Below the pieces are notes generated by a model, which saw nothing but the letters and a program-made list of their open reading frames with translations, was not told the origin of the DNA and ran no database searches. 64,000 nucleotides of DNA from Anaerolineaceae bacterium (GTDB lineage Bacteria > Chloroflexota > Anaerolineae > Anaerolineales > Anaerolineaceae), in NCBI GenBank assembly GCA_016841525.1, contig JAENYZ010000006.1, positions 180,509-244,508 on the forward strand, given 5' to 3'. This document shows positions 1 through 49,013 of the stretch, piece by piece. Numbering within the stretch: position 1 is the first letter of the stretch; each line of letters opens with the position of its first letter. A program made the translations under genes and the position numbers.

Positions 1-517
1 ACCTGACCATATTTTCACCAGCTGGGCCAATAGTGGCAGAGCGAACCTGGTCATCACCGAAAATTTCGCGGATTTTTTCTTCTGTTTCATAAGTACCCAA
101 ACCCAGGAGTTTGTCAGCTGGTAGAAACTCCACACGATCATCATCGATGAATAAGTATATCCAGTCTTTACTTGCACCGTGGATGACAACGCCGTCCCAT
201 TGTGCCCGTTTCAAGGCAACAGAAAACCAGCTTCCTGAAAGACTATCACCGATGACACCGGTTAATGGTGATTTTGATGCCAGGCCATATTTACCACCTA
301 CAGGGACTGGTGTGCCTGAAAAGATGCCGTTTGCAAAGCAAATTGGATTTCCAGGATCATATGCATCACATCCTACTTTGATGTTTTCCCAGCAGAGGCG
401 AGTTGCCATGCAAACGCCACCGATATAAATTTTGTACCACTCTTCAGGTTTTTCTTCTGACCAGTGTTTTCGTTCATCCAGGTCTATGTGCAGAATTTTT
501 CCACTGTATCCATGCAT
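1..517 (-). CDS. aor: Aldehyde:ferredoxin oxidoreductase (tungsto/molybdopterin enzyme), N-terminal part; the 3' end lies outside the window
   Basis: Absent from the ORF track because it runs off the edge. Reverse translation from ATG at 515-517 gives MHGYSGKILHIDLDERKHW..IGGVCMATRL..GKYGLASKSPLTGVIGDSLSGSWF..TIGPAGENMV, typical of the AOR N-terminal domain. AAGGAG lies about 8 nt upstream. Confidence 0.8.
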   Translation of the reverse strand, partial: MHGYSGKILHIDLDERKHWSEEKPEEWYKIYIGGVCMATRLCWENIKVGCDAYDPGNPICFANGIFSGTPVPVGGKYGLASKSPLTGVIGDSLSGSWFSVALKRAQWDGVVIHGASKDWIYLFIDDDRVEFLPADKLLGLGTYETEEKIREIFGDDQVRSATIGPAGENMVR

Positions 518-787: not shown

Positions 788-2377
788 TCAAATAACGTGT
801 TCAGGGAGAAACATTTCCGAATCCTTAAATATACGAGCAGTTTGTGTGTGGAATGCAGGAAATTTTGTAAATGCATCAGCAGGCGACCCATTGAAAATAA
901 TTTTCCCTGCTTCAATGATAACGACCCTATCAGCTAAACCTGCGGCAAACTCAACATCATGTGTTACAAGTAAAATCCCTTTGCCAAAATTCCGCCATTC
1001 TTTGAAGAGAAGGGATAATTGGTTTTTCGCCGTATAATCCAGGCCTCGAGTAGGTTCGTCTAAAAAAATTATGTCAGGATCATGAATTGTGACAGTAGCC
1101 AGAGCGACGCGCTGCCTTTCGCCAACGGAAAGATCCCTTGGGTGTTGGTTCAATTTTTCTGCAAGCTTGAATTGTTGAAGAAAATCGATCAAATCTTGAT
1201 CAGTCTTTTCAAGCCCATGGTTTTTCAGGGTGATCTTTAATTCGTCGAGGATTGTTTCAGCAAATAGCAAATCATTTGGGTTTTGTGGTAAGTAACCGAT
1301 TTGATTTAATATCCTGGTGATGGGCAAATCTGAAAAATTTTGACTCTTAAAAAATTTCTCGCCCACGGAATCCATTAATCCTAAAATTGATCTTAACAAA
1401 CTTGTCTTTCCTGATCCGTTTTTCCCAAGAAGAACAAGGATTTCTGATTGCTTCAAGCTAAAAGATATATTCTTAAGGATTGGCTCCTGATTAAATTGTG
1501 CAGAGAGGTGCTTAATTTCTAGAATTGATTCAGAATTTGTTTCTTGTAAAACCGGTTGAACCAATTTGATACCAGGCTTTCTGTTACTGCTCACATTCTT
1601 TGGAAAATCCTCAACGGTTAACGGCAGCGGATTGAGTCCTAGTTTTTTCCCGATCGCCACAACTGGCGGCAGATTTTGTAAATGAGGGATGATCTGGCTC
1701 GGACTCCCCATGTTCAGATTGTGGTCATTATTCATTTTTATGACATTGTCGGTGTAGGGCAGCAGCCTTTCGAGTCTGTGCTCTGAGATCAGGATTGTTA
1801 GATCTGTATTTTTCTTTAATGAAACGCATAATCTTAATATTTGATCTGCTGAAATGGGGTCAAGCTGTGATGTGGGTTCGTCCAAAAGCAAAACTTTCGG
1901 ATTTGTCACAAGCACACTGGCAATCGCGACCTTTTGTTTTTCTCCTCCAGAAATTTCATGGATCGACCGGTAACGAATTGAGGATAATTCCAGGCGTTCA
2001 ATTATTTCATCAACACGAGCGTGCATTTCTGTCCTTGTCACCCCCATGTTTTCCAGAGCGAAGGCAATTTCATCTTCCACAATATCAAAGACAAACTGCG
2101 CTTCAGGCTCTTGGAACACAAATCCGACATTTGATGCAAGCATTTCAGGTCCATCATTGATTGGGTCAGACCCAAATACATCAATCTTCCCCGATATTGT
2201 GCCCCCTGAAAAATGCGGTACGAGACCGTTGATGCACCGCAAGAAAGTAGATTTGCCGCTCCCTGATGGGCCGATAATCAGGGTTAGGGTGCCTTGTTTG
2301 ATTTGACAATCAACATTTTCAAGCGCATATTGAGAAGTATTTGGATATTTAAAGGATAAGCCTTCAATATTAATCAT
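788..2377 (-). CDS. ECF transporter ATPase, fused EcfA-EcfA' (two ABC cassettes)
   Basis: Walker A GPSGSGKST and GKNGSGKTS. Signatures ISGGEKQKVAIA and LSVGERQRVALA. Walker B LLLDEPTS and IFLDEPTR. Start moved from 2413 to ATG 2377 (MINIEGLSFKY), giving an 8-nt overlap with the upstream T gene. Confidence 0.85.
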   Translation of the reverse strand: MINIEGLSFKYPNTSQYALENVDCQIKQGTLTLIIGPSGSGKSTFLRCINGLVPHFSGGTISGKIDVFGSDPINDGPEMLASNVGFVFQEPEAQFVFDIVEDEIAFALENMGVTRTEMHARVDEIIERLELSSIRYRSIHEISGGEKQKVAIASVLVTNPKVLLLDEPTSQLDPISADQILRLCVSLKKNTDLTILISEHRLERLLPYTDNVIKMNNDHNLNMGSPSQIIPHLQNLPPVVAIGKKLGLNPLPLTVEDFPKNVSSNRKPGIKLVQPVLQETNSESILEIKHLSAQFNQEPILKNISFSLKQSEILVLLGKNGSGKTSLLRSILGLMDSVGEKFFKSQNFSDLPITRILNQIGYLPQNPNDLLFAETILDELKITLKNHGLEKTDQDLIDFLQQFKLAEKLNQHPRDLSVGERQRVALATVTIHDPDIIFLDEPTRGLDYTAKNQLSLLFKEWRNFGKGILLVTHDVEFAAGLADRVVIIEAGKIIFNGSPADAFTKFPAFHTQTARIFKDSEMFLPEHVI

Positions 2378-3386
2378 GGTCGGACACCAGTATGGGCAAA
2401 ATTGGAATAGCACTCAGCAAGACGCCTCCAATATTGAACGATGGCATGGATAATTGCGGATAGGGTGAGTAAGAAAAGCTGTTCTCAAAGAATACAGCAG
2501 ATATGATTTGCAAAATAATTGAAGTTAGAAAAACGATGCTTAAAAGGATATCGATTTTTTGCCAGGGAACCTGGTGATAATGCGTGACCTTAAACTCGCT
2601 GCCTTTTTTAATAAGGGTCAGGATAATGATGCTTCCACCAACTACATATAGAAAAATGCTGATGACTTGTGGGTATGCATATAAATTCAAAATCCATCCG
2701 GAAAAAATTGAAAAAGTGCCAAAAACCAGGCTGATCACCGCTAAATTTGCATTGTTTCTCCTGGAAACAGCGTGAAAACCTCTCGATGTCATTGATTCTG
2801 AAAGAATTATGGCGTCTTCAAGGCTGGTTACAATCAAAGGTAATAGGATAGGCAGCCAATCAGATATCTTTTTCATAGGGTTCCCACGAATCATTTGTGC
2901 TTCTTTGATTTCCCTGGCTCTTTGTTGAATAGAAGGGAAAAAGGTCAACGCCAATGTGGCAGTCATCCCAATTGGATGGAAGGCACGTGGTATCAACCGA
3001 CTCAGCTGTTTCACGCTCAAAGCTAAATTGAAAATGTTGATACTGAGATAAAGTGATCCAATGATCAGACCGTTAATGGCACCATAGATGAGTGATTCAA
3101 GGGTGATATCTCCACCAACCAGGAGCCAGTTTTCAGGGAATTGGAATAATTTAGTAAGACCTATGTGCGTAAATAAACCGTTTACAAGTGATGAGATCAA
3201 AACCATTGAGATAAGAAAGCGAAAGTTAAGACCAATCCAGGCTTTTCTATGCTGTGCCTTTGCTTTATGATTCCCAAGGGTGAACAGGACAATCAAAACA
3301 AGCAATAAGTAAATTGGATTTCTTGTTGAGAGAACGAAGATAATTGTGTTAATCAGCCACAAAACCCAAATATATGCGTTTTTCAT
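2370..3386 (-). CDS. ECF transporter transmembrane (EcfT/CbiQ-like) component with an extra C-terminal membrane extension
   Basis: Polytopic membrane protein with EcfT-like coupling region QQRAREIKEAQMIRG..LEDAIILSESMTSRGF. Start moved to ATG 3386 (MKNAYIW), an ATGA overlap with the S gene stop. At about 338 aa it is longer than the usual ~265-aa EcfT. Confidence 0.7.
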   Translation of the reverse strand: MKNAYIWVLWLINTIIFVLSTRNPIYLLLVLIVLFTLGNHKAKAQHRKAWIGLNFRFLISMVLISSLVNGLFTHIGLTKLFQFPENWLLVGGDITLESLIYGAINGLIIGSLYLSINIFNLALSVKQLSRLIPRAFHPIGMTATLALTFFPSIQQRAREIKEAQMIRGNPMKKISDWLPILLPLIVTSLEDAIILSESMTSRGFHAVSRRNNANLAVISLVFGTFSIFSGWILNLYAYPQVISIFLYVVGGSIIILTLIKKGSEFKVTHYHQVPWQKIDILLSIVFLTSIILQIISAVFFENSFSYSPYPQLSMPSFNIGGVLLSAIPILPILVSDHD

Positions 3387-4189
3387 GATGGTTTTGACCC
3401 TTCCGAGTGAAATGAGAAACGCTGGTAAAAACGTTGAAATACCTTTAAGAATGGGCGTGCCATAGTCAGCATGATAAGAATATTGCCAATTGAGCGGGTG
3501 ATGTCCCAAATGACAGAAGTCGCCAAATAATATGCACCGTATTTGCCCAGGTTTTCCAGCAGGCTGGCACTCTGACTCCAAGATGATCCCGCGCCACCGC
3601 CAAGGAAAGGCCAGAACCAGAGGTTCATTATCAATCCATATAGCATTCCCCAAAACGCGCTAAATAAGGTCAATACTAAAACTTCACCAAACTTTTCTTT
3701 TAAATGGAGTTTATTGTTTATATAAGATACTATGGATGCGGTCTGACCCACCCAGCCTGCTGTGATCATCTGTCCTGGTAACCAGGGTCCGATGCCGCCT
3801 GTAATCAAACCTGAAACGAACATGGTCATCGCTCCCATCAGGAAACCGATTCGACTACCAAAGAAGTAACCCACCAATATGATCAGGAAAAACGTTGGGC
3901 TAAACCCTGCAGGACCAGGTATTGCATTCTCAAGAAAACGCAAGCCAGCATTAATAGATATTAAGACACCTAAAAAGGCAATCATTTTATTGTCCAGAAC
4001 GGAAGATTGTGTTTCAATAAAAACAATTGCCAGGCACAAAATGATGATCAGACTGACCACAATTGGAAAAGCTGAAGATTGTATTTCAGTATTCCGAGCC
4101 TGGGGAAGAATAAAGGGTGCCAGAAGGCTCAAAAGACCGATTAGAAAAACAAAGATGTTTGTCAAAATCCCTGTAAGCGTTTTTTTCAT
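3383..4189 (-). CDS. ECF S-component-like integral membrane protein (putative corrinoid-specific)
   Basis: 268 aa, multi-TM and glycine-rich helices, with no soluble domain. It sits between the surface protein and the T/AA' genes with 4-nt ATGA overlaps on both sides. Substrate is inferred only from the cobalamin riboswitch. Confidence 0.55.
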   Translation of the reverse strand: MKKTLTGILTNIFVFLIGLLSLLAPFILPQARNTEIQSSAFPIVVSLIIILCLAIVFIETQSSVLDNKMIAFLGVLISINAGLRFLENAIPGPAGFSPTFFLIILVGYFFGSRIGFLMGAMTMFVSGLITGGIGPWLPGQMITAGWVGQTASIVSYINNKLHLKEKFGEVLVLTLFSAFWGMLYGLIMNLWFWPFLGGGAGSSWSQSASLLENLGKYGAYYLATSVIWDITRSIGNILIMLTMARPFLKVFQRFYQRFSFHSEGSKPS

Positions 4190-6672
4190 GCCTGCTTTCG
4201 GATGTATTTGAAATAAATGAAAACTGCCAGGAGAATTCCGAAGGTTGCAATGATTACGAGAGGGAGGGGATTAAATTGCTCTGCTTCTTCATCCTCAAAC
4301 CTCGTCTCATTTCGTGTTTGTTCTCCTGTCGTTTCTGGCGTTTCTGTCACAAAGCTTTCAGTTAGAGAGGGTTCAGTCATTTGTGGTGATTGCTGTGAAT
4401 CTTGCTTATTAAAATTACCATCTTGAGATCTAAAGAGATCTCCGTAGTTAAGATAGGATTGGACTTGATAATTTTTTAACACAGCTGTTCCACAAATTTC
4501 ACTTAAGTTTGTTCCATATGAAGGCGGTTTGGATGGAAATTCTTCCCAACTCGTCAAGTACCATGCCTGGATGCTGCCAGGCACAACTTCTGTTTGAGCC
4601 GCGCCGGTTTCATAAAACTGCCATTCTCTTCCATCCCAATACCAGTAAGACCAGTAAAGGGTGTCATCGTTAGGATTATTGAATCCTTCAATAGTATTAA
4701 TAAATCCGCCCTCAGAATCCACGTTTAGACCGGAGGAGTCTAAAAGCGTCATGCCTGATACTGAATTTTCATCAAGTGCGACACATCTTTTAATGATTTT
4801 ACCTTGTTGATTGGGGTCGATAATTAAAGCGGCATAAGGTTTAGTTTCGGGAGGTGTTACCATGTAGCTTCCATCAAACAGGGCCAACAAAGATGCTGTT
4901 GTTCCCATCAAATTATCGTCTGGATAGTCCCATGAGAAAACGAAGGCACCATTTGTCTTTTGAAAGGAAAGTAAATCTGGTAATGGGCTGAAGTTTTTCT
5001 CAGTATTCCAATCAGAACTTGATTCACCCAGGGCATTAAGTGCCATCAAGACAAAAGCTGTTGTGCTTGAATCACCCCAACCACCATCCTGCGATTGCAT
5101 TTCGTTGATATATGCCAAACCCATCTGGATGCTTGGGTCATCCCTGCTGACATTTGCTGCCAATAATGCCTGGATGGCTATTGCAGTATTGTCAGGCCAG
5201 ATGCCAGTGCCGGCGGCGTATTCCCAGCCGCCATTCTCTTTTTGTAGTGTTTTTAACGTATCGATTGCACCTTCTGGAATTTCTTCATCAGCTGCTGCAA
5301 GACCAAGGATAGCCATTGCCTGATGCCAGGTGTTCTCGGCGTCACCAAAGGCATTAACATTTGGGTCATACGTCTCCAGGAGCATTGTCACCAGGTTTTT
5401 GCCAGCAAACATCTTTGGATTTTCACCACTTGCGACCAGGCCAAGGATGAGCTTTCCAAGGGCATCCGGACCATTTTCAAGATAAGAATCAAGATTAGTG
5501 ACAATATAATCCGAAGGACTTATTTTGTTTTTGGTTATGGAATCCGGATCCCATCCGGCGGCTCGCAAAGCTAAAATGACATCCATGGTTTGCCCGACGG
5601 CGCCCCAACCGCCATCTGACCCCTGGTTTTCGATGATGTAATCAAAAGCGTGGCTTGCTCGCTTGACATAGCCTAAAGCATAAAGCGGCTGCCCTGACAG
5701 ACCGAGCAAGGCTTCTGCTGTTGAATATGCGTTTCCGTATTCACCGCCAATCATGCCATTTTCTTTTAGCAATGTGAGAAGTGCTTGCAAGGGATCTGAA
5801 CCTTCTCTTAGCCAGCTTTCATCCAGGGGATTTTCACCAATTGCGCTTATTGCCTGAAGGATCATGCCTGTCGTGTTTGCATTGGTGGTCGAGTCCCATT
5901 GTGTTTGCCATCCGCCATTGTTTTGTTGATTATTTTTAAGAAAATCGATCGCATTTTGAATTTCAGTTAGGTTTGCGTTGTCATGGTCAGATGCCATTAA
6001 TGCCATAACGGCTAAAGGTGTCATGTCAAGGAAACCACCAAAGCCATCATTCCAGCTGCCGTCATCATCTTGAGCATCGGTAAGCCAATCAACGGCCTCC
6101 GTTGGAATTGGAGCATGGTTTGCCGACAAGCCCAAAATAGCCCATACCTGGTCCGTCACGTTGTCAACCGTTGCAGTCCCATAAACGCCCGTTGTTAAAT
6201 CGTAGCGGCTGGTAATTTCGTATATATAATCAACAGGATCCTCGCCAAAATGCCTCGGATTATTATTTGCAGCAGCGATTGCTGTTAGGAGTTGGCCGGC
6301 TCTTGCGACATTAAATGCAGGTGCTTCACTATCAGACTTGTTGACCCAATCGTAACCAGAAACCGACAGAAAATCACTGGGAAGTTTTCCTGAAGGTGAC
6401 TGCAGATAGTCCTGTGGGTAATGATTTGCGGCCAGTGCTAAAACTGTGCGAATTGTGGCAGGGACACTTGACGTTTCCTCAATCCAACGAATACCGCCAT
6501 CTTGATTGAGTTGGGTTTTGAGGTAAGCAAATGCCCTTTCAATGTGCGTTTGGGGAATTTCCTGGCGAGAATGCTTTTGTATAGGATTGGCAATAACCCC
6601 AGGCAAGGATAAGGTGAATAAAGCAAATAACGAAAAAATTATGAATACAGTTTTAAGAACGGTTTTTGTCAC
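4186..6672 (-). CDS. Secreted, C-terminally membrane-anchored protein: prenyltransferase/terpene-cyclase-like alpha/alpha-toroid repeats plus a DUF4430 (transcobalamin beta-domain-like) module
   Basis: GTG start with a Sec signal (..LSLPGVIANP). About 8 repeats of the QDGGW type: QDGGIRW, DDGSWNDGFGG, NNGGWQTQW, SDGGWGAVG, ENGGWEYAAG, QDGGWGDSS, TNGAFVFSW. The DUF4430-like stretch is GGFINTIEGF..LYWSYWYWDGREWQF..GSIQAW. An acidic linker and final TM helix (LPLVIIATFGILLAVFIYF) follow. Confidence 0.7.
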   Translation of the reverse strand: MTKTVLKTVFIIFSLFALFTLSLPGVIANPIQKHSRQEIPQTHIERAFAYLKTQLNQDGGIRWIEETSSVPATIRTVLALAANHYPQDYLQSPSGKLPSDFLSVSGYDWVNKSDSEAPAFNVARAGQLLTAIAAANNNPRHFGEDPVDYIYEITSRYDLTTGVYGTATVDNVTDQVWAILGLSANHAPIPTEAVDWLTDAQDDDGSWNDGFGGFLDMTPLAVMALMASDHDNANLTEIQNAIDFLKNNQQNNGGWQTQWDSTTNANTTGMILQAISAIGENPLDESWLREGSDPLQALLTLLKENGMIGGEYGNAYSTAEALLGLSGQPLYALGYVKRASHAFDYIIENQGSDGGWGAVGQTMDVILALRAAGWDPDSITKNKISPSDYIVTNLDSYLENGPDALGKLILGLVASGENPKMFAGKNLVTMLLETYDPNVNAFGDAENTWHQAMAILGLAAADEEIPEGAIDTLKTLQKENGGWEYAAGTGIWPDNTAIAIQALLAANVSRDDPSIQMGLAYINEMQSQDGGWGDSSTTAFVLMALNALGESSSDWNTEKNFSPLPDLLSFQKTNGAFVFSWDYPDDNLMGTTASLLALFDGSYMVTPPETKPYAALIIDPNQQGKIIKRCVALDENSVSGMTLLDSSGLNVDSEGGFINTIEGFNNPNDDTLYWSYWYWDGREWQFYETGAAQTEVVPGSIQAWYLTSWEEFPSKPPSYGTNLSEICGTAVLKNYQVQSYLNYGDLFRSQDGNFNKQDSQQSPQMTEPSLTESFVTETPETTGEQTRNETRFEDEEAEQFNPLPLVIIATFGILLAVFIYFKYIRKQA

Positions 6673-6693
6673 AGCGCAAATCCTTTTTTAATG

Positions 6694-6720
6694 AAAAACG
6701 ACCTTTTCGTGAAAAGGTCG
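6694..6720 (-). terminator. Intrinsic terminator/attenuator of the B12 riboswitch
   Basis: Perfect 9-bp stem (6699-6707 cgacctttt with 6712-6720 aaaaggtcg), a 4-nt loop, then UUUUU on the minus strand (6694-6698). Confidence 0.8.
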
Positions 6721-6945
6721 TTAAATCATAACGCCCAGGTTGGGCGACAGGATGAGGTCGGAACTATTTAAAAAATCCGATACCCAAACTGCCTTTCCAC
6801 GAAGTGTTTTGGGTCACAAAGGGCGGGTTATCGGACTTCACCAATGGTGTTACCGTTGCGGGACAGTGCTGGACTTTCACCAGCTTCCCCCATTGTGCAC
6901 CTTGCATCCGGGCAGGAGGTGCACCCTTTATGGCTTATTTACTTA
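6694..6945 (-). promoter_or_regulatory. Cobalamin (B12) riboswitch with terminator expression platform
   Basis: The minus-strand RNA contains AAUGGGGGAAGCUGGUGAAAGUCCAGCACUGUCCCGCAACGGUAACACC, the conserved GGUGAAA-UCC / CCCGCAACGGUAA core. A B12-box-like GAAGUCCGAUAACCCGCCC follows, then a terminator hairpin just before the GTG start at 6672. Confidence 0.85.
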
Positions 6946-6951
6946 ACCACA

Positions 6952-6980
6952 ATTCTAATGGTAAATTGTGCTATTGTCAA
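6952..6980 (-). promoter_or_regulatory. Sigma-70-like promoter for the B12-riboswitch operon
   Basis: Minus strand reads TTGACA (6975-6980), a 17-nt spacer, then TAGAAT (6952-6957). Confidence 0.6.
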
Positions 6981-7024: not shown

Positions 7025-7447
7025 TTATTTAAGATTGATGGCAATGACATCCTTGACCTGAAGTTTGCTTGACAAATCAGGCATGACCATACGCAGGATG
7101 TCTTCATCGAATGCAACGATACAATTTGCACAGCTCAAGGCTTCTGCAAGCGGCATTTCTGCTTCATAGCCGTCGGAAGCTGTAAAGACGAGGGTTTCCC
7201 CGTCAGTGAGATTGGCGTCCTGCAATAGGTCGATAAGCGCAACACCTTGATAGGTTGTTGTTTCACCGTCCTTATTTGTGTAGTCGGCAGACAGCGTGTC
7301 ATAGGCTTCTAATTCTGACAGGGAAAATTCTTCTGAACCGACTATCAGGACGGCGGTTTCCGTTACCACTGCTTCTGGCGTTTGACTGCAGGCAGCAAGT
7401 AAGGCAACTAGAATAAACAGACTGGTGAATAAGAATGATTTTTTCAT
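7025..7447 (-). CDS. Small lipoprotein consisting of one copy of the operon's ~100-aa secreted module
   Basis: Lipobox LLAAC|S. Module signature TYQGVALIDLLQDANL..LVFTASDGYEAEMPL. AAAGGA RBS. Confidence 0.6.
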   Translation of the reverse strand: MKKSFLFTSLFILVALLAACSQTPEAVVTETAVLIVGSEEFSLSELEAYDTLSADYTNKDGETTTYQGVALIDLLQDANLTDGETLVFTASDGYEAEMPLAEALSCANCIVAFDEDILRMVMPDLSSKLQVKDVIAINLK

Positions 7448-7475
7448 GGTGATCCTTTCTTAATATAGATTGCTG

Positions 7476-7970
7476 TTATTTGTGAACAATGATCTCAGTA
7501 ACTTGAAATACCCAACGATTGGCTGGCGTCATGGGGAAAACCAGCCGAATGGGACCAGCGTCTGGTTCAGCATCGACAATCCATTCGCCAGCTTGTGTAA
7601 GGGCGACAATCCCATCGACCATTTCGTCTTTACTGATTTCAATAGCGTAACCGTCGGCTGCGATTGCGGTAATTGTGCTGATATCATCCGGAGCACCAAC
7701 TTTTTCTAAGAGTAAGGCAAGTGGAACACCGCTAAAAGAACGGACCTCGTCTTCTCCCCGTGATTTTTCCATGAGTACTTCATTCAAATCAACCAGTTCC
7801 ATTTCGGATAATTCGGCGAATGAAAATGTTGTTGGGTTGTCCACATCTCCAGAAATGGAGAGCTCCCATTCAACTTTGGGTGTGCTACCACAGGCGGTGA
7901 GGAGCATGGAAATGCATATCAGCACTACCCATTTTGAAATATTTACTTTTGGTTGCCCGACTTTAACCAT
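7476..7970 (-). CDS. Small lipoprotein, one copy of the secreted module
   Basis: Lipobox LLTAC|G. Signature SFSGVPLALLLEKVGA..ITAIAADGYAIEIS..GPIRLVFP..WVFQVTEIIV. AAGGAG RBS. Confidence 0.6.
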   Translation of the reverse strand: MVKVGQPKVNISKWVVLICISMLLTACGSTPKVEWELSISGDVDNPTTFSFAELSEMELVDLNEVLMEKSRGEDEVRSFSGVPLALLLEKVGAPDDISTITAIAADGYAIEISKDEMVDGIVALTQAGEWIVDAEPDAGPIRLVFPMTPANRWVFQVTEIIVHK

Positions 7971-7980
7971 ATCAACTCCT

Positions 7981-9111
7981 TTATTTCTCGATAAAAATGA
8001 TGGGAATAATTAGATCGGCGGCTGTTAAGGTGCCATGGTTTCCGCCGTCCTCTGTTTTGTGCATGCCATGGTCGGCAAAGATTGTGATCAGGGTGTCTTC
8101 TGGCAGCCTTATGAAAATTTCTTCCAAATAACTGTCAACCTGGATAATAGATGCTTCATATTCTGAAGAAAAAGGTCCGTATTGATGCCCCATATCGTCG
8201 ATGTCATGAAAATGAATATAAAGCAAATCTGGCATATCCGAGAGGATGACTTCAAGGCTGTTTTCAAAGACATTATCATTTGTGATGCCATTTTCATCCC
8301 GATCACCGCTTAAAATTGTTTCAGCATTTCTCAAGTTGAATGCCAGGCTGTGTCCTTCTACAGCGATTACCGATTTACTATTTTCTGCAAAAAGATCAAA
8401 AAGGGTTTTGGATGTGGTCTTGCGATAACCATAACCATAAACTTTGTTTTCTTTTGGCAATGTACTGGTTAAAAGCGCTGCTGATGAGGATGTTGTAATG
8501 GGTGGAAATACCGTTATTCCCTGCTGAACCCCGTTTAATTGCTCAAAGAAAGGTAATTTTCCCGTATCAATTAATGATGTGAGGATATCGTAATTAAGAC
8601 CATCCAGGAAAATCATGACGGCATGATCCCAAATGCCTGATTCGGTCAAACGAACCTGGCCATTGGCGTTGGGTAATTCTGGCAAAGTAAAGGCATAAGC
8701 AATGGTCGGGGCAATATCCATAATTGAGTAATAATTGGAAATTGAAGGCGCATCAATTTCAATTTGATCCGCGGATATCATTTTGTCGTCTTCCAATGTG
8801 ATTTCACCGGATTCTCGAATTGTTGCTGTCTCACCTATTTCATCCCAGACATAGGTTAAGCTTGCTTCGCTTTCTGATATGAATGTGATTTCATCTACGA
8901 GGGTGTAGCCAAGATCATATAACATTTGACCCAGGGGGATTTCACTGGTTTCTTCCTCGTAATTATCGATATAGAATTTGACGCTTTCTTGATTGATCAC
9001 GCCAATATTGCGTCCATCTTCAAAGACCTCGATTTTCCAGGCAGGTTTACAGGCAGAAAATAAGAAAACAAAGGACAGCAAGAGGATGATTTTTGTTTTG
9101 TTTTTTATCAT
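7981..9111 (-). CDS. Lipoprotein: N-terminal module copy plus a nucleotide pyrophosphatase/phosphodiesterase (alkaline-phosphatase superfamily) domain
   Basis: Lipobox LFSAC|K. AlkP/NPP motifs: VMIFLDGLNYD (metal Asp), PPITTSSSAALLT (Thr/Ser nucleophile region), HFHDIDDMGHQYGP and IFADHGMH. Confidence 0.7.
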   Translation of the reverse strand: MIKNKTKIILLLSFVFLFSACKPAWKIEVFEDGRNIGVINQESVKFYIDNYEEETSEIPLGQMLYDLGYTLVDEITFISESEASLTYVWDEIGETATIRESGEITLEDDKMISADQIEIDAPSISNYYSIMDIAPTIAYAFTLPELPNANGQVRLTESGIWDHAVMIFLDGLNYDILTSLIDTGKLPFFEQLNGVQQGITVFPPITTSSSAALLTSTLPKENKVYGYGYRKTTSKTLFDLFAENSKSVIAVEGHSLAFNLRNAETILSGDRDENGITNDNVFENSLEVILSDMPDLLYIHFHDIDDMGHQYGPFSSEYEASIIQVDSYLEEIFIRLPEDTLITIFADHGMHKTEDGGNHGTLTAADLIIPIIFIEK

Positions 9112-9113
9112 TT

Positions 9114-10034
9114 CTAATTTGACTCGATTTCCACAATTTGAGTTGGCCAGACGCTTCTTCCACGATCTGGTAAGACGAGGGTAACCTCATCTTTGACGAT
9201 TGCGATGATTGCATTTTGAATTTCATCTGCCGTTAATTCTATAACCTCACCGTTAGAATCTGTGATGATAACGACATCCGGAGAAGTGGTCTTTAGCAGG
9301 TCCAATAGTCTAGGCCCTTCAACCCAGTTTGCGACCATTGCATGGCTCAGGTTCCCAGTATCATCGGAAAGCATGACATCTGATCCTTCGACTGTTAACC
9401 GCATTGTGTCCCCTAATAACAGCCTTCCAATCGAAGTCGCTTCACCATCAATCGTGAGGGGTCTGTCTTTCCCAACAATCGTGATCCGATTGATGCCTTT
9501 CAGCCAGGTTGAATTATGAATGGTTTCTGTTATAAAACGAACGCCATCAATATAAGGAACTAACATCGCCGTTTCATCGAGGTATTGGTATTCGATTGTC
9601 GTTAATCCACCATCATTGGTTATGAATGTTACGGTTTCAAACTCCTGGACGCCGTGCATTTCCAGAAAATTTAGTAATGTGATATGTGTCCCTAAATTTT
9701 CTTGATCAGGAATGACCTGATGGATCCTCACAAAGCTTGGGTCTGGAACATCTCCTGTTAATTCGACGATCTCAGAAAATGGGATATTTGTTAGTTCAAC
9801 AGACCCATGTTCGTCATGACAGGTTTCGCAGGAATGAAAATCCACTGAATCATGGCATTCTGCACATTCGTTCATCTCCAATCCCTCTTTCCAGAGCAAG
9901 CCCAAGCCGTATTCCTGCAGTAAAGAAACTGGCATTGGTTTTGCAGTGATGACAAGCGCGATGATCACACCAAATAACGAAATGGTGAAAACGATAAGAA
10001 AGATGATGATAGGCTTTGATTGATACTTCTTCAT
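9114..10034 (-). CDS. N-terminally membrane-anchored protein with two CXXCH motifs followed by two module copies
   Basis: One TM helix (IIIFLIVFTISLFGVIIALVI), then ECAECHDSVDFHSCETCHDEHG (9816-9866), then two module-like segments. Start set to ATG 10034 (ATGA overlap with the EcfT stop, GGAG 7 nt upstream) rather than 10046. Confidence 0.6.
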   Translation of the reverse strand: MKKYQSKPIIIFLIVFTISLFGVIIALVITAKPMPVSLLQEYGLGLLWKEGLEMNECAECHDSVDFHSCETCHDEHGSVELTNIPFSEIVELTGDVPDPSFVRIHQVIPDQENLGTHITLLNFLEMHGVQEFETVTFITNDGGLTTIEYQYLDETAMLVPYIDGVRFITETIHNSTWLKGINRITIVGKDRPLTIDGEATSIGRLLLGDTMRLTVEGSDVMLSDDTGNLSHAMVANWVEGPRLLDLLKTTSPDVVIITDSNGEVIELTADEIQNAIIAIVKDEVTLVLPDRGRSVWPTQIVEIESN

Positions 10035-10816
10035 AGAGTTCTCCAATAATTCAAAAGAAATAAACTGCCAAAGTAAAATATCAAAATCAAGCTGACAAAT
10101 AAATCAAGTCGAGTTGCTTTTGGGGCTCTGTGAAACGTTCGTTCAGTTTGCCTTCCAAAACCTCTTCCTTCCATACTGAATACCAGCTTATCCGTTCGAC
10201 GAAGTGCGCTAATCAGAAGGGGTGTCAAGAATTGTTTGATAAGATTCAGGATTTTAATAACGCTTCCCTGGTCGTACCGAACACCACGTAGAAGCTGTGC
10301 TTTATAAATGATTTGTCCCTCTTCTTCAAGGATGGGTGCCAACCTTATTGCGGTCACAAGCATAAACCCATACCGGTAAGGTAAACCAATTTTCATCAAT
10401 GCATATGCAATGTCATTGGGTTTTGTGGTCAGGATAAAGAGATAACTCGAAAAAATGATCAATAGAAAACGACTGCTTATGAGTAAGCCCAGATTAAGTC
10501 CGTTTGATGTAATCTGTAAAAAACCGATACCAGGATCCAGAAGATTTTTACCTTGTTTATCAAAGAGAATATAAAGCACAAAGAGCATGAGGCCTGTTGC
10601 TAAAGCCATTCGAAAGCCTCTCACTGTTAAGATATCGGGTTTGATCAACAACAGCAGGATTAAGCTAAAGAAAGCAGTGATGGCGAGCAGTTCCGCCCAG
10701 TTTACGATGAAGGCAAAAGTTGTAGTGAGCAGTAGCCAGGTAAATTTTGTTATTGGATAAAGACGGTGCAAAAGGCTGTGACCAGGGGAGTAGGTGAGCT
10801 TATGCATAGATTTCAC
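10031..10816 (-). CDS. ecfT: ECF transporter transmembrane component EcfT (CbiQ family)
   Basis: About 260-aa polytopic protein with EcfT coupling motifs IIYKAQLLRGV..LISALRRTDKLVFSMEGRGF. It overlaps the ATPase gene end; the start could be 10816 or 10807. Confidence 0.8.
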   Translation of the reverse strand: MKSMHKLTYSPGHSLLHRLYPITKFTWLLLTTTFAFIVNWAELLAITAFFSLILLLLIKPDILTVRGFRMALATGLMLFVLYILFDKQGKNLLDPGIGFLQITSNGLNLGLLISSRFLLIIFSSYLFILTTKPNDIAYALMKIGLPYRYGFMLVTAIRLAPILEEEGQIIYKAQLLRGVRYDQGSVIKILNLIKQFLTPLLISALRRTDKLVFSMEGRGFGRQTERTFHRAPKATRLDLFVSLILIFYFGSLFLLNYWRTL

Positions 10817-12299
10817 TCAATCTCTTATTGGGAACAAATGAATCAAAACCCGAGGTTCTTAAGGTTTCAAAAGCTAAATCTACAGGCTGGTCCAGTAAAA
10901 TTCTTCCCTCATCAAGGAAGATCAAACGACGACAAAAAGTTTCGGTAAGCTGGGGATGATGGTTTACTAATAAAACAGAATTTCCAAGTTTCGTATAGTC
11001 ATAAAGAATGTTCATCCAGATGATTGCATTCGCCATATCCTGACCAATTAATAATTCATCAATTATGAGAAGCCTTGGGTTGTGAAGCATGGCTGCTAAT
11101 AGATTCAAGCGTCGTTTTTCACCATAACTCAGACGTTGTGGGTGATCATCCACTCGATCTAACAATTCAATTTGTTTGAGCCAATTTTTCGCTTGATTTA
11201 CGATGTCTTCTGTAAGAAACTTGAGATTTTTTGATGTGAATATCAATTCATCCAGAACAGATTGCGTAAATAATTGGTGATCTGGATTTTGAAAAATATA
11301 TCCTACATCTTTTACGAGTTCGGATGTTCTAATATTTGGGGATGCCTGGTTGAAAAAGCGAAGGCTTCCACTGCTTGGCCGATGAAAACCAACCAAAGAT
11401 TGTAGTAAAGTGCTTTTCCCACTTCCGTTTGGTCCCATAAGGGCAATAAACTCGCCAGGAGCAATTTTGAAATTAATGCCCTGGAGAATAATTTTGTCCT
11501 GAATTTTCACTTCAAGGTTTTCCGCATCTACCAAAATGCCATTGTTTTGATTTTGATGAGAAGTTCTCCCAGTAAAGGAGAGATTTATCCTGTTGCTGGA
11601 TTCAGAAAGATATTGGTCATTTCCAAAGGGTTTGATTTCACCCTGGTCAAGCATAAATAATTTTGGATTTAGATCTAGAAGTTGGGATAATTTATGCTCA
11701 AATATGATTACAGTCAAACCCATAGACTGGTGTAAGCTGTGAAGGGTTTGGAAAATATTTCGGGTAGCTATGGGATCTAAATTTGATGTCGGTTCATCAA
11801 GGATCAGCAAGTCAGGCGATAGGGCAAGCATGGATGCAATCGCGACCTTTTGCTTTTCTCCGCCTGATAGCGTCGCTAAGTCGCGGCCTCTGAGGTTTAA
11901 ACCTCTGACAATCGCCAGTGATTTATTAATTTTGTCTTCGATTTCATCTGGTGTAACACACAAGTTTTCAAGACCAAAGGCAATTTCATCGTCAACATTG
12001 AGTGTGCAAAATTGATCTTCAGGGTTTTGCTGAACATACCCAACTTTTCTGCTGGCTTCATAAAGGGGGAGCTGGGTCATATCTTCGCTGTTGATAATAA
12101 TTTTTCCTGAATAATTTGCTGTATCATCCTGAAATAAAAAACCTGCCAGGGCTGTACCGAAGGTTGATTTTCCACAGCCAGACTTACCTGTGATCACAAC
12201 GAAATCGCCGCGATAGATTTCAAAATGCAAATCACGAAACACAGGTGTATCCTCACCAGGATATGTATAAGAAAAATCACTTACCTTGACCCAGCTCAT
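10800..12299 (-). CDS. ECF transporter ATPase, fused EcfA-EcfA'
   Basis: Cassette 1: GKSGCGKST, LSGGEKQKVAIA, LILDEPTS. Cassette 2: GPNGSGKST, LSYGEKRRLNLL, LIIDELLIGQD. Confidence 0.85.
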   Translation of the reverse strand: MSWVKVSDFSYTYPGEDTPVFRDLHFEIYRGDFVVITGKSGCGKSTFGTALAGFLFQDDTANYSGKIIINSEDMTQLPLYEASRKVGYVQQNPEDQFCTLNVDDEIAFGLENLCVTPDEIEDKINKSLAIVRGLNLRGRDLATLSGGEKQKVAIASMLALSPDLLILDEPTSNLDPIATRNIFQTLHSLHQSMGLTVIIFEHKLSQLLDLNPKLFMLDQGEIKPFGNDQYLSESSNRINLSFTGRTSHQNQNNGILVDAENLEVKIQDKIILQGINFKIAPGEFIALMGPNGSGKSTLLQSLVGFHRPSSGSLRFFNQASPNIRTSELVKDVGYIFQNPDHQLFTQSVLDELIFTSKNLKFLTEDIVNQAKNWLKQIELLDRVDDHPQRLSYGEKRRLNLLAAMLHNPRLLIIDELLIGQDMANAIIWMNILYDYTKLGNSVLLVNHHPQLTETFCRRLIFLDEGRILLDQPVDLAFETLRTSGFDSFVPNKRLSEIYA

Positions 12300-12302
12300 C
12301 GA

Positions 12303-13682
12303 TTAATTAATTTCTATACTTGAAACAGGGTAAACAAGAACATCACCGGTCATTTCAGCAAGCACATAACTGATTCCTTTGTCCTCAATCAAAATGAATA
12401 ACCGAATGTCGTTATTTTGGTCAATTTTCTCCCAATCAAGCGTGAGATTTTGCCCTGTTTCTGATTTGAAGAGGACTTGGGATATGTTACTTCCTGTTGC
12501 TGATGCTTCAATGACTTTCCACACGGGCACACCCTGAAGCTTCTGAGATCCTTCAGGAAGTGCAATTTGTGTACTGTCCATCTCTGATATCCAGTTTTTA
12601 GCTTCAAATAAAAATATTCCACCCTGCGGCATATTGACTTCGAGTGCTTTAGCAGCAATCAACCGAATTTCTATTACATTCCGAACCCAGGCTTTATTAC
12701 TTTCTGGCCCGACAATATCAAATGAGGCATTTTGGCCACGTCCTTGTTGAACCAGAAGAATGTTTTCATTTTCAATAAGTTCTTCAAGGCTAATCATGAA
12801 GGCATAGCCATCAGATGCTTCAATCAGGATGGTGTTGGTGTCTTTATTAGGTTCCGCATAATTAATAATCTCACTCAATTGGAAGCCTTCGTATGAAGTG
12901 AGAACGCCGCGATAATCCATTTGGCGAGAGATTTTATTAATTTTTAGTTCGTTATTTGGAAATTCAATGGCATTTTCTACTGCGCCTGAAATTTTAACGG
13001 TTTCAGCACCTTTAAGTGTTGTTAACAAAATGGATATAAAGGCTGCAGCAAATATCAACGCACTGAACAGGATGATCCATCCCAATTTTTGCAGCTTTTC
13101 TTTTTGTGTTGGCAATTTTACAACGCCAGCATTTGTGAGCATATTGATCAACCAATAAGGCAAAAGTCCTGCAAAGACGAAACCTGAGAGAGCAGCCAGA
13201 AGGAATAAGATCGCAATAGCACTCAAGCCGAGAATATTTAATGGTATGGTCGCAAATATTTGAAAAACCAGAACATTGGATCCTGATGCCAATCCACCTG
13301 CGAGCAGATAAGCAAGCAAGGACCTTTTATTGCGAAACAAAAGAAATCCGAAATCAACCAAAATTCCAGCAATCAGATCGACCAATAAGATAATGATTCC
13401 ATGGCTGTTCCCACTAAAAAGTTCGACGGCACCTTTTAAGATGCCCATGACAATGCCCGTCCCTGGCTTTTGAATAATCCCAAAGGCAATTACAATCCAC
13501 AGGACGTGCAATCCAGCTGCCCATTGTGTCCCGCCCGGGAAACCAAGGGCTGCCTGAACAAGATCACCAAGTGCGTTGATATAAGTGCCGGTGACACCTC
13601 CAAGTGCCGCCAGCACAGCCATAATTAACAAATTGTGGGTTGAAAAATAAAAGGATTTGTTATTTCCTTCTTGTGTTGTCAA
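12303..13682 (-). CDS. ECF S-component-like membrane core fused through an extra TM helix to two extracytoplasmic module copies
   Basis: TTG start 8 nt after AAGGAG. About 190 aa of small hydrophobic helices (..GGVTGTYINALG..AAGLHVLWIVIAFG..) are followed by TM helix LGWIILFSALIFAAAFISILL. Then come SYEGFQLSEIINYA..LIEASDGYAFMISL and KLQGVPVWKVIEA.. Confidence 0.6.
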   Translation of the reverse strand: MTTQEGNNKSFYFSTHNLLIMAVLAALGGVTGTYINALGDLVQAALGFPGGTQWAAGLHVLWIVIAFGIIQKPGTGIVMGILKGAVELFSGNSHGIIILLVDLIAGILVDFGFLLFRNKRSLLAYLLAGGLASGSNVLVFQIFATIPLNILGLSAIAILFLLAALSGFVFAGLLPYWLINMLTNAGVVKLPTQKEKLQKLGWIILFSALIFAAAFISILLTTLKGAETVKISGAVENAIEFPNNELKINKISRQMDYRGVLTSYEGFQLSEIINYAEPNKDTNTILIEASDGYAFMISLEELIENENILLVQQGRGQNASFDIVGPESNKAWVRNVIEIRLIAAKALEVNMPQGGIFLFEAKNWISEMDSTQIALPEGSQKLQGVPVWKVIEASATGSNISQVLFKSETGQNLTLDWEKIDQNNDIRLFILIEDKGISYVLAEMTGDVLVYPVSSIEIN

Positions 13683-13684
13683 AG

Positions 13685-13710
13685 AAAAAGCTCCTTCCAG
13701 AAAAAGGAGC
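13685..13710 (-). terminator. Terminator / RBS-sequestering hairpin of the leader
   Basis: GCUCCUU-(7 nt)-AAGGAGC followed by UUUUUCU, then the TTG start. The 3' arm is the Shine-Dalgarno sequence. The 5' arm (CUCCUUUUU) can alternatively pair with the aptamer's 3' strand GGAAAGGAG. Confidence 0.7.
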
Positions 13711-13754
13711 GCACAAAAACAAAACGATCTATAATTTATCGTGTTGTTGTGTTG

Positions 13755-13849
13755 ATCTCCTTTCCAAATACGGGAGGCAAGTACGTTTCCATTCTTACCC
13801 TATCGGTCTGAGTGCCATAGCAGCACATTAGGCAAGCAGACTCGAAGAT
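13755..13849 (-). promoter_or_regulatory. Candidate riboswitch aptamer, resembling the Moco (molybdenum/tungsten cofactor) RNA motif
   Basis: The minus-strand RNA is AUCUUCGAGUCUGC..UAUGGCACUCAGACCGAUAGGGUAAGAAUGGAAACGUACUUGCCUCCCGUAUUUGGAAAGGAGAU. P1 pairs AUCUUC with GGAGAU. Internal helices are GUCUG/CAGAC and GGUAAG/CUUGCC. The islands CGAG, GGCACUC, GCCUCCC and GAAAGGAG appear in the order I recall for RF01055. This rests on my memory of the consensus, not a covariance-model score. Confidence 0.5.
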
Positions 13850-13876
13850 ACTACAACTAATTATTCGATTATTGAT

Positions 13877-48820: not shown

Positions 48821-48912
48821 AAGGGCCTCCTTATATTAAATTATTTTGACAGTAAAAAATGGGGTCCTCTGTCAGGCGTTATTTCTTCTGCATGTTCAGA
48901 GGTGTCTGTTTA

Positions 48913-48990
48913 ATGGGTCTCCTTTACCTGAGAGTTTCAGCTTATTGCCTTGCCCCTTCGGTGCCGAGTAAAAACGCGGTCTCTTCCCAT
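48913..48990 (-). promoter_or_regulatory. Glycine riboswitch, single aptamer
   Basis: The minus-strand RNA is AUGGGAAGAGACCGCG..CUCGGCACCGAAGGGGCAAGGC..AAACUCUCAGGUAAAGGAGACCCAU. P1 pairs AUGGG with CCCAU. The conserved GGAGA, CACCGAAGGGGCAA and CUCAGGNAAAGGA blocks are present. A U6 tract lies downstream at about 48856-48861. Confidence 0.85.
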
Positions 48991-49013
48991 TAACATCTAA
49001 CTTTTGTAATTTG

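Follow-up and report, generated by a model that had tools for sequence, protein, structure and literature searches.

A riboswitch-preceded ECF operon of an Anaerolineae bacterium and its predicted transcobalamin-like surface protein

A four-gene locus of a Brevefilum-like Anaerolineae genome probably encodes a riboswitch-gated, dedicated (group I) ECF corrinoid importer that possesses its own surface receptor. ECF transporters are usually described as having no substrate-binding protein, and the ways in which most monoderm bacteria acquire B12 are poorly known. The genome (3.2 Mb, 97% complete) is that of a B12-dependent filamentous anaerobe. The genes are arranged on the minus strand in the order A, S, T, AA', all four downstream of a cobalamin riboswitch. 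Positions below are those of the window, i.e., the whole 64,000-nucleotide stretch of DNA that was analysed.

6952-6980, minus strand: predicted sigma-70-type promoter, -35 TTGACA (6980-6975), 17-nt spacer, -10 TAGAAT (6957-6952)
6805-6943, minus strand: cobalamin riboswitch aptamer (RF00174, covariance-model match), short form without most of the P6 extension
6690-6722, minus strand: predicted intrinsic terminator, 11-bp stem, 4-nt loop and T-run, with a terminator-like site scored at 6722-6697
4186-6672, minus strand: gene A, GTG start, 828-aa membrane-anchored surface protein, putative corrinoid receptor
3383-4189, minus strand: gene S, 268-aa ECF S component (PF12822, ECF_trnsprt), its start overlapping the stop of A
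2370-3386, minus strand: gene T, 338-aa ECF T component of the CbiQ family (PF02361), ATG at 3386, overlapping S
788-2377, minus strand: gene AA', 529-aa fused double ECF ATPase (two ABC_tran domains), ATG at 2377, overlapping T

An earlier note on this DNA had described a strong B12 riboswitch followed by four overlapping genes. The covariance match to RF00174 indeed scores 61.7 bits (E 7.7e-13), above the gathering score of 31.5, and spans the full model (1-189). The junctions are likewise exactly as described: ATGA overlaps for A/S and S/T and an 8-nt overlap for T/AA'. The aptamer is the sole RF00174 match of the whole genome. Upstream, the predicted promoter agrees with the consensus at 11 of 12 positions and is the best of the region. 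The terminator hairpin, which recurs in both the MFE and the centroid folds of the leader, is located between the aptamer and the start codon and is, as judged from the sequence, the expression platform of a predicted transcriptional OFF switch. At low intracellular cobamide, the empty aptamer would allow read-through of the terminator at 6722-6697 and thereby expression of the four coupled genes; at high cobamide, the switch would be closed.

As read from its genes, the host shows a use of B12, since three proteins score above the B12-binding cut-off of Pfam, including a 1245-aa frame of MetH size, yet neither CbiD nor CbiB nor CobS was found in the 97%-complete genome. Among carriers of the A-S-T-AA' system, genomes without CbiD are not enriched.

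The most distinctive product of the operon is the protein encoded by gene A, present in one copy in the genome. Its predicted parts are as follows.

Residues 1-28 (6589-6672, minus strand): Sec-type signal peptide, hydropathy peak at 5-23, predicted cleavage after VIA (VIA/NP)
Residues 38-328 (5689-6561, minus strand): alpha/alpha toroid 1, four QW-like repeats, matched by PF13243 and PF13249
Residues 334-601 (4870-5673, minus strand): alpha/alpha toroid 2, four QW-like repeats, aligning with the transcobalamin alpha domain
Residues 610-730 (4483-4845, minus strand): transcobalamin-type beta-grasp (SLBB) domain, from a structure match and invariant residues
Residues 750-800 (4273-4425, minus strand): disordered stalk of high Glu, Thr and Gln content, pLDDT <50 at 756-800
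Residues 803-827 (4192-4266, minus strand): C-terminal transmembrane anchor followed by a basic tail on the cytoplasmic side, helix 803-827 in the model

In the structural model, the N-terminus forms a helix (2-21) followed by a segment of low pLDDT (22-35). Together with the predicted signal peptide, the C-terminal transmembrane segment (803-821, hydropathy 2.61, followed by KYIRKQA) agrees with the secreted, C-terminally anchored protein that had been claimed. The claimed eight or so QDGGW-type repeats are also present, at residues 56, 202, 250, 304, 352, 479, 527 and 573; they are distributed over two separate toroids and not over one. The protein passes the Pfam cut-offs of SQHop_cyclase_C, SQHop_cyclase_N and Prenyltrans, with 66.9 and 46.7 bits for PF13243 and PF13249, respectively, both over cut-off. 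On the structural side, toroid 1 resembles terpene cyclases with VIA Z 21-23.5 over residues 38-328, and toroid 2 resembles squalene-hopene cyclase (SHC) with Z about 24 over residues 334-601. A role as a class II terpene cyclase of the squalene-hopene type is unlikely: the QW repeats and the toroid are there and the catalytic DxDD motif (D.DD) is missing throughout A, where WPDNTA takes the place of the DVDDTA of SHC in the alignment, with D-[NS]-T-[AS] family-wide. The beta domain carries a YWSYWxWDG motif and a conserved cysteine pair (C630, C727).

The likeness of A to the animal B12 carriers is best seen at the level of the fold. When the AF2 model of the whole protein (pLDDT 87.8) was submitted to Foldseek, transcobalamin (TC) and haptocorrin (HC) accounted for the top 13 PDB matches (E 4e-11 to 3e-9) and intrinsic factor (IF) ranked 17 and 24, the three carriers together spanning E 4e-11 to 3e-8. 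This bears out the transcobalamin-like two-part architecture proposed in the earlier note. Whole carrier chains (residues 8-409) align to residues 334-709 of the A model with VIA Z 19.3-20.6. Moreover, in an exhaustive structure search of 48,161 chains, the beta domain alone (model pLDDT 87.9) matched TC, IF, HC and 3u7z only, with Z 12.0-12.5, the next match being at 7.4. The domain model shows strands 14-20 and 28-33, a helix 41-47, a hairpin 52-55/58-62 and strands 73-80, 85-87 and 102-109. [quoted passage not shown]

Sequence profiles do not recover this relationship directly. PF14478 (DUF4430) matches neither the beta domain of A at E <= 1 nor any protein of the host genome; it does match 17 of 46 homologous beta domains (best E 7.6e-5). 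The DUF4430-like character claimed for this domain therefore stands by fold and by relatives and fails for A's own sequence. Similarly, PF01122 (Cobalamin_bind) gives no match to A at E <= 0.01 nor to toroid 2 alone at E <= 0.1, while of eight single-toroid relatives, seven match it below the threshold (best 24.5 bits, cut-off 25), and a beta-domain profile search of the PDB recovered no TC sequence. Because these profiles miss, the link between A and TC is structural and transitive. TC, IF and HC (PDB 2BB5, 2BB6, 2PMV, 4KKI) have the same order as A, an alpha/alpha toroid and then a beta-grasp domain; identity is 12-17%, and A differs by an additional N-terminal toroid, a membrane anchor and another domain placement. 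Relative to the toroid, the modelled beta domain is positioned in a manner unlike that of TC (rmsd about 22 A with both domains aligned), and thus a TC-like sandwich in A stays a proposal.

The three genes following A all pass curated family cut-offs, in agreement with the S-like, T and AA' assignments made earlier. S scores 40.6 bits against PF12822 (cut-off 30.7, residues 68-242) and has eight transmembrane helices predicted by a TM scan, two of them extra at the N-terminus. T scores 42.1 bits against PF02361 (cut-off 25); it is extended C-terminally by about 130 aa, with extra transmembrane segments at 215-334, and has two arginine-containing motifs, IRG at 166-168 and SRG at 201-203, which we take to be the canonical ECF coupling-helix motifs. 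AA' passes both members of the NCBIfam ECF_ATPase_1/ECF_ATPase_2 pair, TIGR04520 with 343 bits (cut-off 315) and TIGR04521 with 330.3 bits (cut-off 330), and has Walker A motifs at residues 36 and 318. By its family matches, with S (PF12822), T (PF02361) and two A-type ATPase domains, the operon is a predicted dedicated (group I) ECF module. A comparison of S with CbrT and BtuM had been suggested. S is an ECF S component and is not CbrT- or BtuM-like at the sequence level, the level at which all PDB chains were searched up to E 10 with phmmer and a 54-sequence profile: neither CbrT nor BtuM was matched, and the sole PDB match was FolT, a weak one (E 0.03). Members of the S family are about 270 aa long and are found in Chloroflexota and Actinomycetota. 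Chloroflexota are abundant in sediments and digesters.

The A-S-T-AA' operon, intact or rearranged, is kept across Chloroflexota and Dormibacterota. In 28 of 30 related loci from the two phyla, RF00174 immediately precedes the genes on their own strand, with A identity down to 28%. Whatever the arrangement, the relatives examined always have toroid and SLBB together with S, T and AA' behind the riboswitch. Both toroid/SLBB domain orders occur, and some operons contain a second SLBB paralogue. In 12 loci, SLBB is fused to S, the N-terminus of which then bears a signal peptide, the SLBB domain and a Pro/Thr linker; this covalent fusion argues for a direct cooperation. The riboswitch, the folds, the related loci and these fusions together support the claim that a cell-surface corrinoid-capture protein feeds a dedicated ECF importer.

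The following mechanism may be envisaged, in which we infer corrinoid binding by A, its hand-over to S and the topology. A would be exported by means of its signal peptide and held by the C-terminal helix and the stalk of about 50 residues, thereby exposing the two alpha/alpha toroids and the beta-grasp (SLBB) domain outside the cell. Toroid 2 and SLBB, ordered as in transcobalamin and intrinsic factor, would sandwich the corrinoid, which A would then pass to the 8-TM S component. T and the fused AA' ATPase would drive S to release it into the cytoplasm. Toroid 1 might be a second site or a selector among cobamides. Chances seem evenly balanced that the locus is a prototype, specific for corrinoids, of ECF import assisted by a receptor, where a TC-like ectodomain hands cobamides directly to an enlarged 8-TM S; the SLBB-S fusion of relatives could be this A-to-S coupling made covalent.

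A different division of labour would have the ECF module import the corrinoid alone. A would then hand nothing to S and would act at the surface under B12 limitation in another way: it might, for instance, sequester corrinoids or keep a store of them out of the reach of competitors, discriminate between cobamides or hold the complex in the envelope. The unpacked position of the beta domain on toroid 2 in the model and the absence of an assigned role for toroid 1 in the receptor reading speak in its favour, as does ECF-CbrT of Lactobacillus delbrueckii, an ECF-type ABC importer of cobalamin and cobinamide that needs no extracellular partner for B12 transport (PMC5997447). ECF-CbrT relies on a shared group II ECF module (PMC5997447), whereas a dedicated module and A occur here, and the present S (268 aa, eight predicted TM) has no sequence match to CbrT. 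Translational coupling of A and S, the constant association of toroid and SLBB with the riboswitch-controlled S, T and AA', and the covalent joining of SLBB to S make this explanation unlikely.

That an ECF system may work with an extracytoplasmic partner was also put forward in the earlier note; this view is supported and has precedents (PMC1796856; 10.1101/864751). Burroughs, Balaji, Iyer and Aravind predicted in 2007 toroid and SLBB surface proteins in CbiO/CbiQ operons and proposed that such proteins scavenge B12 or B12 precursors (PMC1796856). Their systems share with the present one a toroid joined to a TC-type beta-grasp domain in a protein that is secreted or at the surface, a CbiQ-like membrane protein and an ATPase of the ECF type, as well as both domain orders and the second SLBB paralogue in some operons. 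They were described mainly in Gram-positive bacteria and archaea, and no riboswitch link was reported there (PMC1796856). The present system differs by its two toroids, by the use of a C-terminal TM anchor in place of a sortase signal, by its distribution in Chloroflexota and Dormibacterota, by the riboswitch in nearly all related loci and by the SLBB-S fusions. The locus belongs to a system type already predicted in 2007, and the substrate evidence is here stronger than that published.

A second precedent raises the question of the substrate. In Lactobacillus sakei, Lsa1836-1840 comprises a dedicated ECF (S, AA', T) and extracellular proteins modelled on the TC alpha and beta domains, which were proposed to scavenge the substrate, claimed to be heme, for the S component (10.1101/864751). 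By description, this system is alike in that a dedicated ECF is encoded with TC-like extracellular parts; its alpha-like part and its beta-like part are encoded as separate proteins, with no riboswitch reported, whereas here they are fused, with an extra toroid and a cobalamin riboswitch. Heme or another non-corrin tetrapyrrole might accordingly be imagined as the substrate of the Anaerolineae importer as well. Deletion of lsa1836-1840 reduced heme uptake (10.1101/864751), and this sole studied relative of the system type is linked to heme and not to B12. In addition, PF14478 is present in the control genomes of Lactococcus lactis and Methanosarcina acetivorans, where RF00174 finds nothing, so that a B12 riboswitch does not accompany the PF14478 family in every case. 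Nevertheless, a heme-type substrate is quite improbable in view of the cobalamin riboswitch directly upstream here and in so many related loci, which is also the only B12 riboswitch of the genome, and of an organism that needs B12 without detected CbiD, CbiB or CobS.

Finally, since B12 riboswitches also control B12-independent isozymes (e.g., metE), the locus might import an unrelated compound needed when B12 is scarce, or A might be an extracellular enzyme built on toroids, akin to a terpene cyclase or a glycoside hydrolase, its strongest sequence matches being squalene-hopene cyclase repeats and its VIA Z to cyclases (about 24) exceeding that to TC (about 20), but both variants are highly improbable given that A is predicted to be secreted, that its beta domain matches corrinoid carriers and 3u7z only, and that single-toroid orthologues match, below threshold, the eukaryotic cobalamin-binding family PF01122.

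For the preferred reading, a corrinoid importer with its own surface receptor, a parallel from diderms may be drawn. BtuG of Bacteroides, described by Wexler and colleagues in eLife in 2018, is reportedly a surface lipoprotein encoded in a B12-riboswitch-controlled uptake locus, which captures corrinoids and feeds a transporter. The logic of riboswitch-controlled surface capture is the same as that proposed here, but BtuG is a beta-propeller feeding the TonB-dependent BtuB, and both its fold and the class of its transporter are unrelated. Because of the riboswitch link in two phyla, the SLBB-S fusion and a B12-using host in which no CbiD, CbiB or CobS was found, the locus and its relatives make the cleanest computational case so far for a bacterial TC-like surface protein working with an ECF importer on corrinoids. 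If the direct hand-over from A to S is real, this would be the first demonstrated case of an ECF transporter that depends on a binding protein outside the cytoplasm, and A the first transcobalamin homologue from bacteria with proven B12 binding. The A ectodomain, predicted to be soluble and well modelled, suits tests of whether the B12 carriers of animals have, as proposed, a bacterial origin. The S-component family is present in about a fifth of sampled Chloroflexota genomes, and the system may therefore be a major route of cobamide sharing in sediments and digesters.

The B12 operon is read from the minus strand of the window and consists of a leader followed by four genes, which encode the predicted toroid surface protein A and the S component, the T component and the fused double ATPase (AA') of an ECF system:

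6980-6952, minus: promoter-like site upstream of the aptamer, the best of the region (TTGACA, 17 nt, TAGAAT)
6805-6943, minus: cobalamin riboswitch aptamer (Rfam RF00174, 61.7 bits, gathering score 31.5, E 7.7e-13)
6722-6697, minus: 11-bp hairpin with a T-run, downstream of the aptamer
4186-6672, minus: gene A, 828 aa, GTG start
3383-4189, minus: gene S, 268 aa, PF12822 above the curated cut-off
2370-3386, minus: gene T, 338 aa, CbiQ (Pfam) above the curated cut-off
788-2377, minus: gene AA', 529 aa, two ECF-type ATPase domains (Pfam and NCBIfam) above the curated cut-offs

The strong B12 riboswitch that the earlier note had placed upstream of these genes thus clears the gathering score, and the coupled junctions (ATGA, ATGA and an 8-nt overlap) are as it had described them. 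The hairpin is present in both the MFE and the centroid folds of the leader. As judged from the sequence, the succession of promoter-like site, aptamer and hairpin is the layout of a putative transcriptional OFF switch. Four RNA libraries from a single sediment study yielded contigs that match most of the operon (95-99% identity); the A/S junction is spanned by one contig, and another runs from the leader into A. Such contigs can neither exclude DNA carry-over nor show levels, and the evidence they give for transcription of the operon is weak.

The aptamer is the single RF00174 match in the whole genome (search of a 3.2-Mb, 97%-complete assembly), on contig C4, and the operon is the host's only B12-gated locus. 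The sole Peripla_BP_2 binding protein is found on contig C5. In this genome, CbiD, CobS and CbiB were not found. The Pfam cut-off for B12 binding is exceeded by three proteins, of which one lies in a MetH-sized frame (1245 aa). The host therefore appears to need ready-made cobamides.

Protein A, a single-copy protein in its genome, has the features of the secreted, C-terminally anchored protein with about eight repeats that had been claimed: a hydrophobic N-terminal signal ending at VIA/NP, eight QW-like motifs, and a TM helix at the C-terminus, after which the sequence reads KYIRKQA. Squalene-hopene cyclase (SHC) and prenyltransferase toroid repeats are detected by Pfam above curated cut-offs. 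Below cut-off, NCBIfam gives the SCO2321 family, a toroid membrane protein, and the SCO2322 family at residues 672-746. The closest homologues, about 830 aa long, belong to Brevefilum and other Anaerolineaceae MAGs and carry no annotation beyond 'prenyltransferase/squalene oxidase repeat-containing protein'; PF28005 is listed for many of them. A search of a large protein collection for shorter or split forms returned chiefly fragments and single toroids with uninformative names.

An AlphaFold2 model of A built on 65 homologues (pLDDT 87.8, pTM 0.83) comprises helical repeats (41-568), a beta domain (577-727), a disordered stretch (756-800) and a terminal helix (803-827). The comparison with transcobalamin (TC) and intrinsic factor (IF) structures that the earlier note had called for was favourable. 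Among PDB entries, the top 13 Foldseek matches are TC and haptocorrin (HC), with E from 4e-11 to 3e-9, and IF ranks 17 and 24, interleaved with SHC and drimenyl diphosphate synthase. Two toroids are delineated in A by VIA, at 38-328 and 334-601, each with Z of 21-24 to terpene cyclases. Whole chains of TC, IF and HC (residues 8-409) align to 334-709 of the model with Z about 20 (VIA). The rmsd of this two-domain alignment is about 22 Å, and the domains of the model are therefore placed unlike those in the crystal structures.

The beta domain was also refolded alone (residues 600-750, 46 homologous domains, pLDDT 87.9) and compared, without Foldseek, with all 48,161 PDB representatives. Bovine TC, the isolated human TC beta domain, 3u7z from Ruminococcus gnavus, IF and HC occupy the top five places (Z 12.0-12.5), and the next match is a generic beta-grasp with Z 7.4. 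The Foldseek result for this domain agrees. The hairpin that follows the helix in the model is the defining trait of the transcobalamin-like SLBB clade, that is, of the TC-type beta-grasp domain (PMC1796856). Of the DUF4430-like character proposed for this domain, the TC-type fold stands, and PF14478 (DUF4430) matches 17 of the 46 homologous domains; the same profile misses the window's own domain, with no match in its stretch (E <= 1) or in the whole genome (E <= 0.01). The beta-domain profile gave only chance-level matches to PDB sequences, TC being absent from them. The eukaryotic cobalamin-binding family PF01122 has no match in A (E <= 0.01) or in toroid 2 (E <= 0.1). Seven of eight single-toroid relatives match it below threshold (best 24.5 bits, cut-off 25), which is a faint link, by sequence, between bacterial toroids and the TC alpha domain. 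Sub-threshold matches are seen in single-toroid orthologues of riboswitch-controlled operons: P0141, L060:4206-5342, L061:5788-6948 and L081:5842-6945.

In a pattern scan with each species represented by a single genome, 80 related loci were recovered, from Anaerolineae, Caldilineales, Chloroflexia, Dehalococcoidia-like lineages and Dormibacterota, and the toroid gene is invariably accompanied by S, T and AA' (ORF calling and BLAST). In the Brevefilum type, a toroid-toroid-SLBB-TM protein precedes S, T and AA'; in the Caldilineales type, the SLBB domain is N-terminal to the toroids; in the Dehalococcoidia-like and Dormibacterota types, toroid and SLBB proteins are separate and the order is toroid, (SLBB), T, AA', S. 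Of the 30 loci tested, 28 have an RF00174 match directly upstream and in the same orientation, at identities of A as low as 28%; the two exceptions, L043 and L030, have no match at gathering score. Anaerolineae aptamers, that of the window (6805-6943) included, are of a short form (about 139 nt, 48-68 bits) that lacks 59 P6-extension positions of the model, whereas those of Dormibacterota operons are full-length (about 172 nt, 92-103 bits; L049:5414-5586, L053:5646-5817, L074:5427-5596). Ligand selectivity may differ between the two forms.

The observation made in the earlier note is therefore real, and its interpretation is supported: A is probably a corrinoid-capture receptor feeding a riboswitch-gated ECF importer. 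In such a model, the switch would open when cobamide is low, and A, once exported, would be kept at the surface by a stalk. Toroid 2 and the SLBB domain would take up the corrinoid in the manner of TC and hand it to the enlarged S component, uptake being powered by T and the fused AA'. The RNA elements, the architecture, the folds, the conservation and the fusions described below rest on observation; corrinoid binding, hand-over and topology are what we infer here.

It may also be imagined that A plays an accessory role at the surface with no hand-over to S. This is unlikely in view of 12 loci where the toroid gene is followed by one whose product begins with a signal peptide and an SLBB domain and continues through a long Pro/Thr linker and a TM helix into an S component, so that the S component carries a tethered extracytoplasmic binding domain of its own. 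These fusions argue for the SLBB domain acting on the S component. They occur in Caldilineales-type relatives (L034:8118-10154, L036:8189-10381, L037:2475-4610, L040:8046-10250 and eight further loci). Aligned by hhalign, the fused SLBB domains and the beta-domain family reach a probability of 100, with an E-value inflated by one fused member inside the latter alignment; the aligned region includes the YW.Y...W motif.

This kind of system is already known from prediction. Secreted bacterial proteins with toroid and SLBB domains in both orders, in operons with CbiO-like and CbiQ-like genes, were described by Burroughs et al. (2007), who proposed that such proteins scavenge B12 and that animal transcobalamin is of bacterial origin (PMC1796856). 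Verplaetse and colleagues reported that in the L. sakei ECF operon lsa1836-1840 the extracellular proteins resembling the alpha and beta parts of transcobalamin are encoded separately, and that deletion of the operon lowers heme uptake (bioRxiv 10.1101/864751). Heme or another tetrapyrrole as the substrate, as claimed for L. sakei, is improbable here, where the operon stands behind a cobalamin riboswitch. It is very improbable that the substrate is unrelated or that A is an enzyme; an extracellular cyclase is unlikely, since A lacks the DxDD motif and is degenerate where the SHC catalytic motif aligns.

In comparison, ECF-CbrT imports B12 without any partner (PMC5997447), and the S component it uses shows no sequence relationship to the present one. 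Neither CbrT nor BtuM, the two comparisons suggested in the earlier note, was matched when the S protein and its profile were searched against PDB sequences. Literature searches found neither a description of such an operon type with a cobalamin riboswitch nor B12-binding data for such systems. The new details are the double toroid, the TM anchor, the range across Chloroflexota and Dormibacterota, and the SLBB-S fusions, and the case for a corrinoid as substrate is now much stronger.

S and T both exceed the canonical size of ECF subunits, and these sizes are kept within the clade. S has two additional N-terminal TM helices ahead of the PF12822 core, and T is lengthened at its C-terminus by a conserved stretch of about 130 aa, in which three or four additional TM helices are predicted. 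By profile search, 64 of the 301 Chloroflexota genomes sampled (G000 and 300 others, including the unpublished G173 and G272) carry the S family, which is single-copy and patchy in its spread. CbiD is absent in 52 of these 64 carriers versus 207 of 237 non-carriers, and one genus has both the S family and CbiD. With no enrichment of carriers for CbiD-less genomes, the system is not confined to auxotrophs. Within one order, the two other genomes of the window's genus both carry the S family, which was found in 0/6 genomes from other genera of that genus's family and in 0/19 genomes of family f2.

Immediately upstream of the B12 operon, an operon preceded by a Moco/Tuco riboswitch (74.5 bits) occupies 7025-13859 (minus) and encodes a second dedicated ECF system. 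It includes a PF09819-type S component, a phosphodiesterase and several secreted modules that resemble Oxidored_molyb, and the B12 operon promoter is overlapped by its terminator region. On the other side, the N-terminal domain of an aldehyde:ferredoxin oxidoreductase, a tungstopterin enzyme, is encoded at 2-517 (minus) and starts 270 nt downstream of AA', after an AT-rich gap in which no terminator-like site was found. Finally, a glycine riboswitch aptamer (RF00504, 61.3 bits) is located at 48905-48998 (minus).
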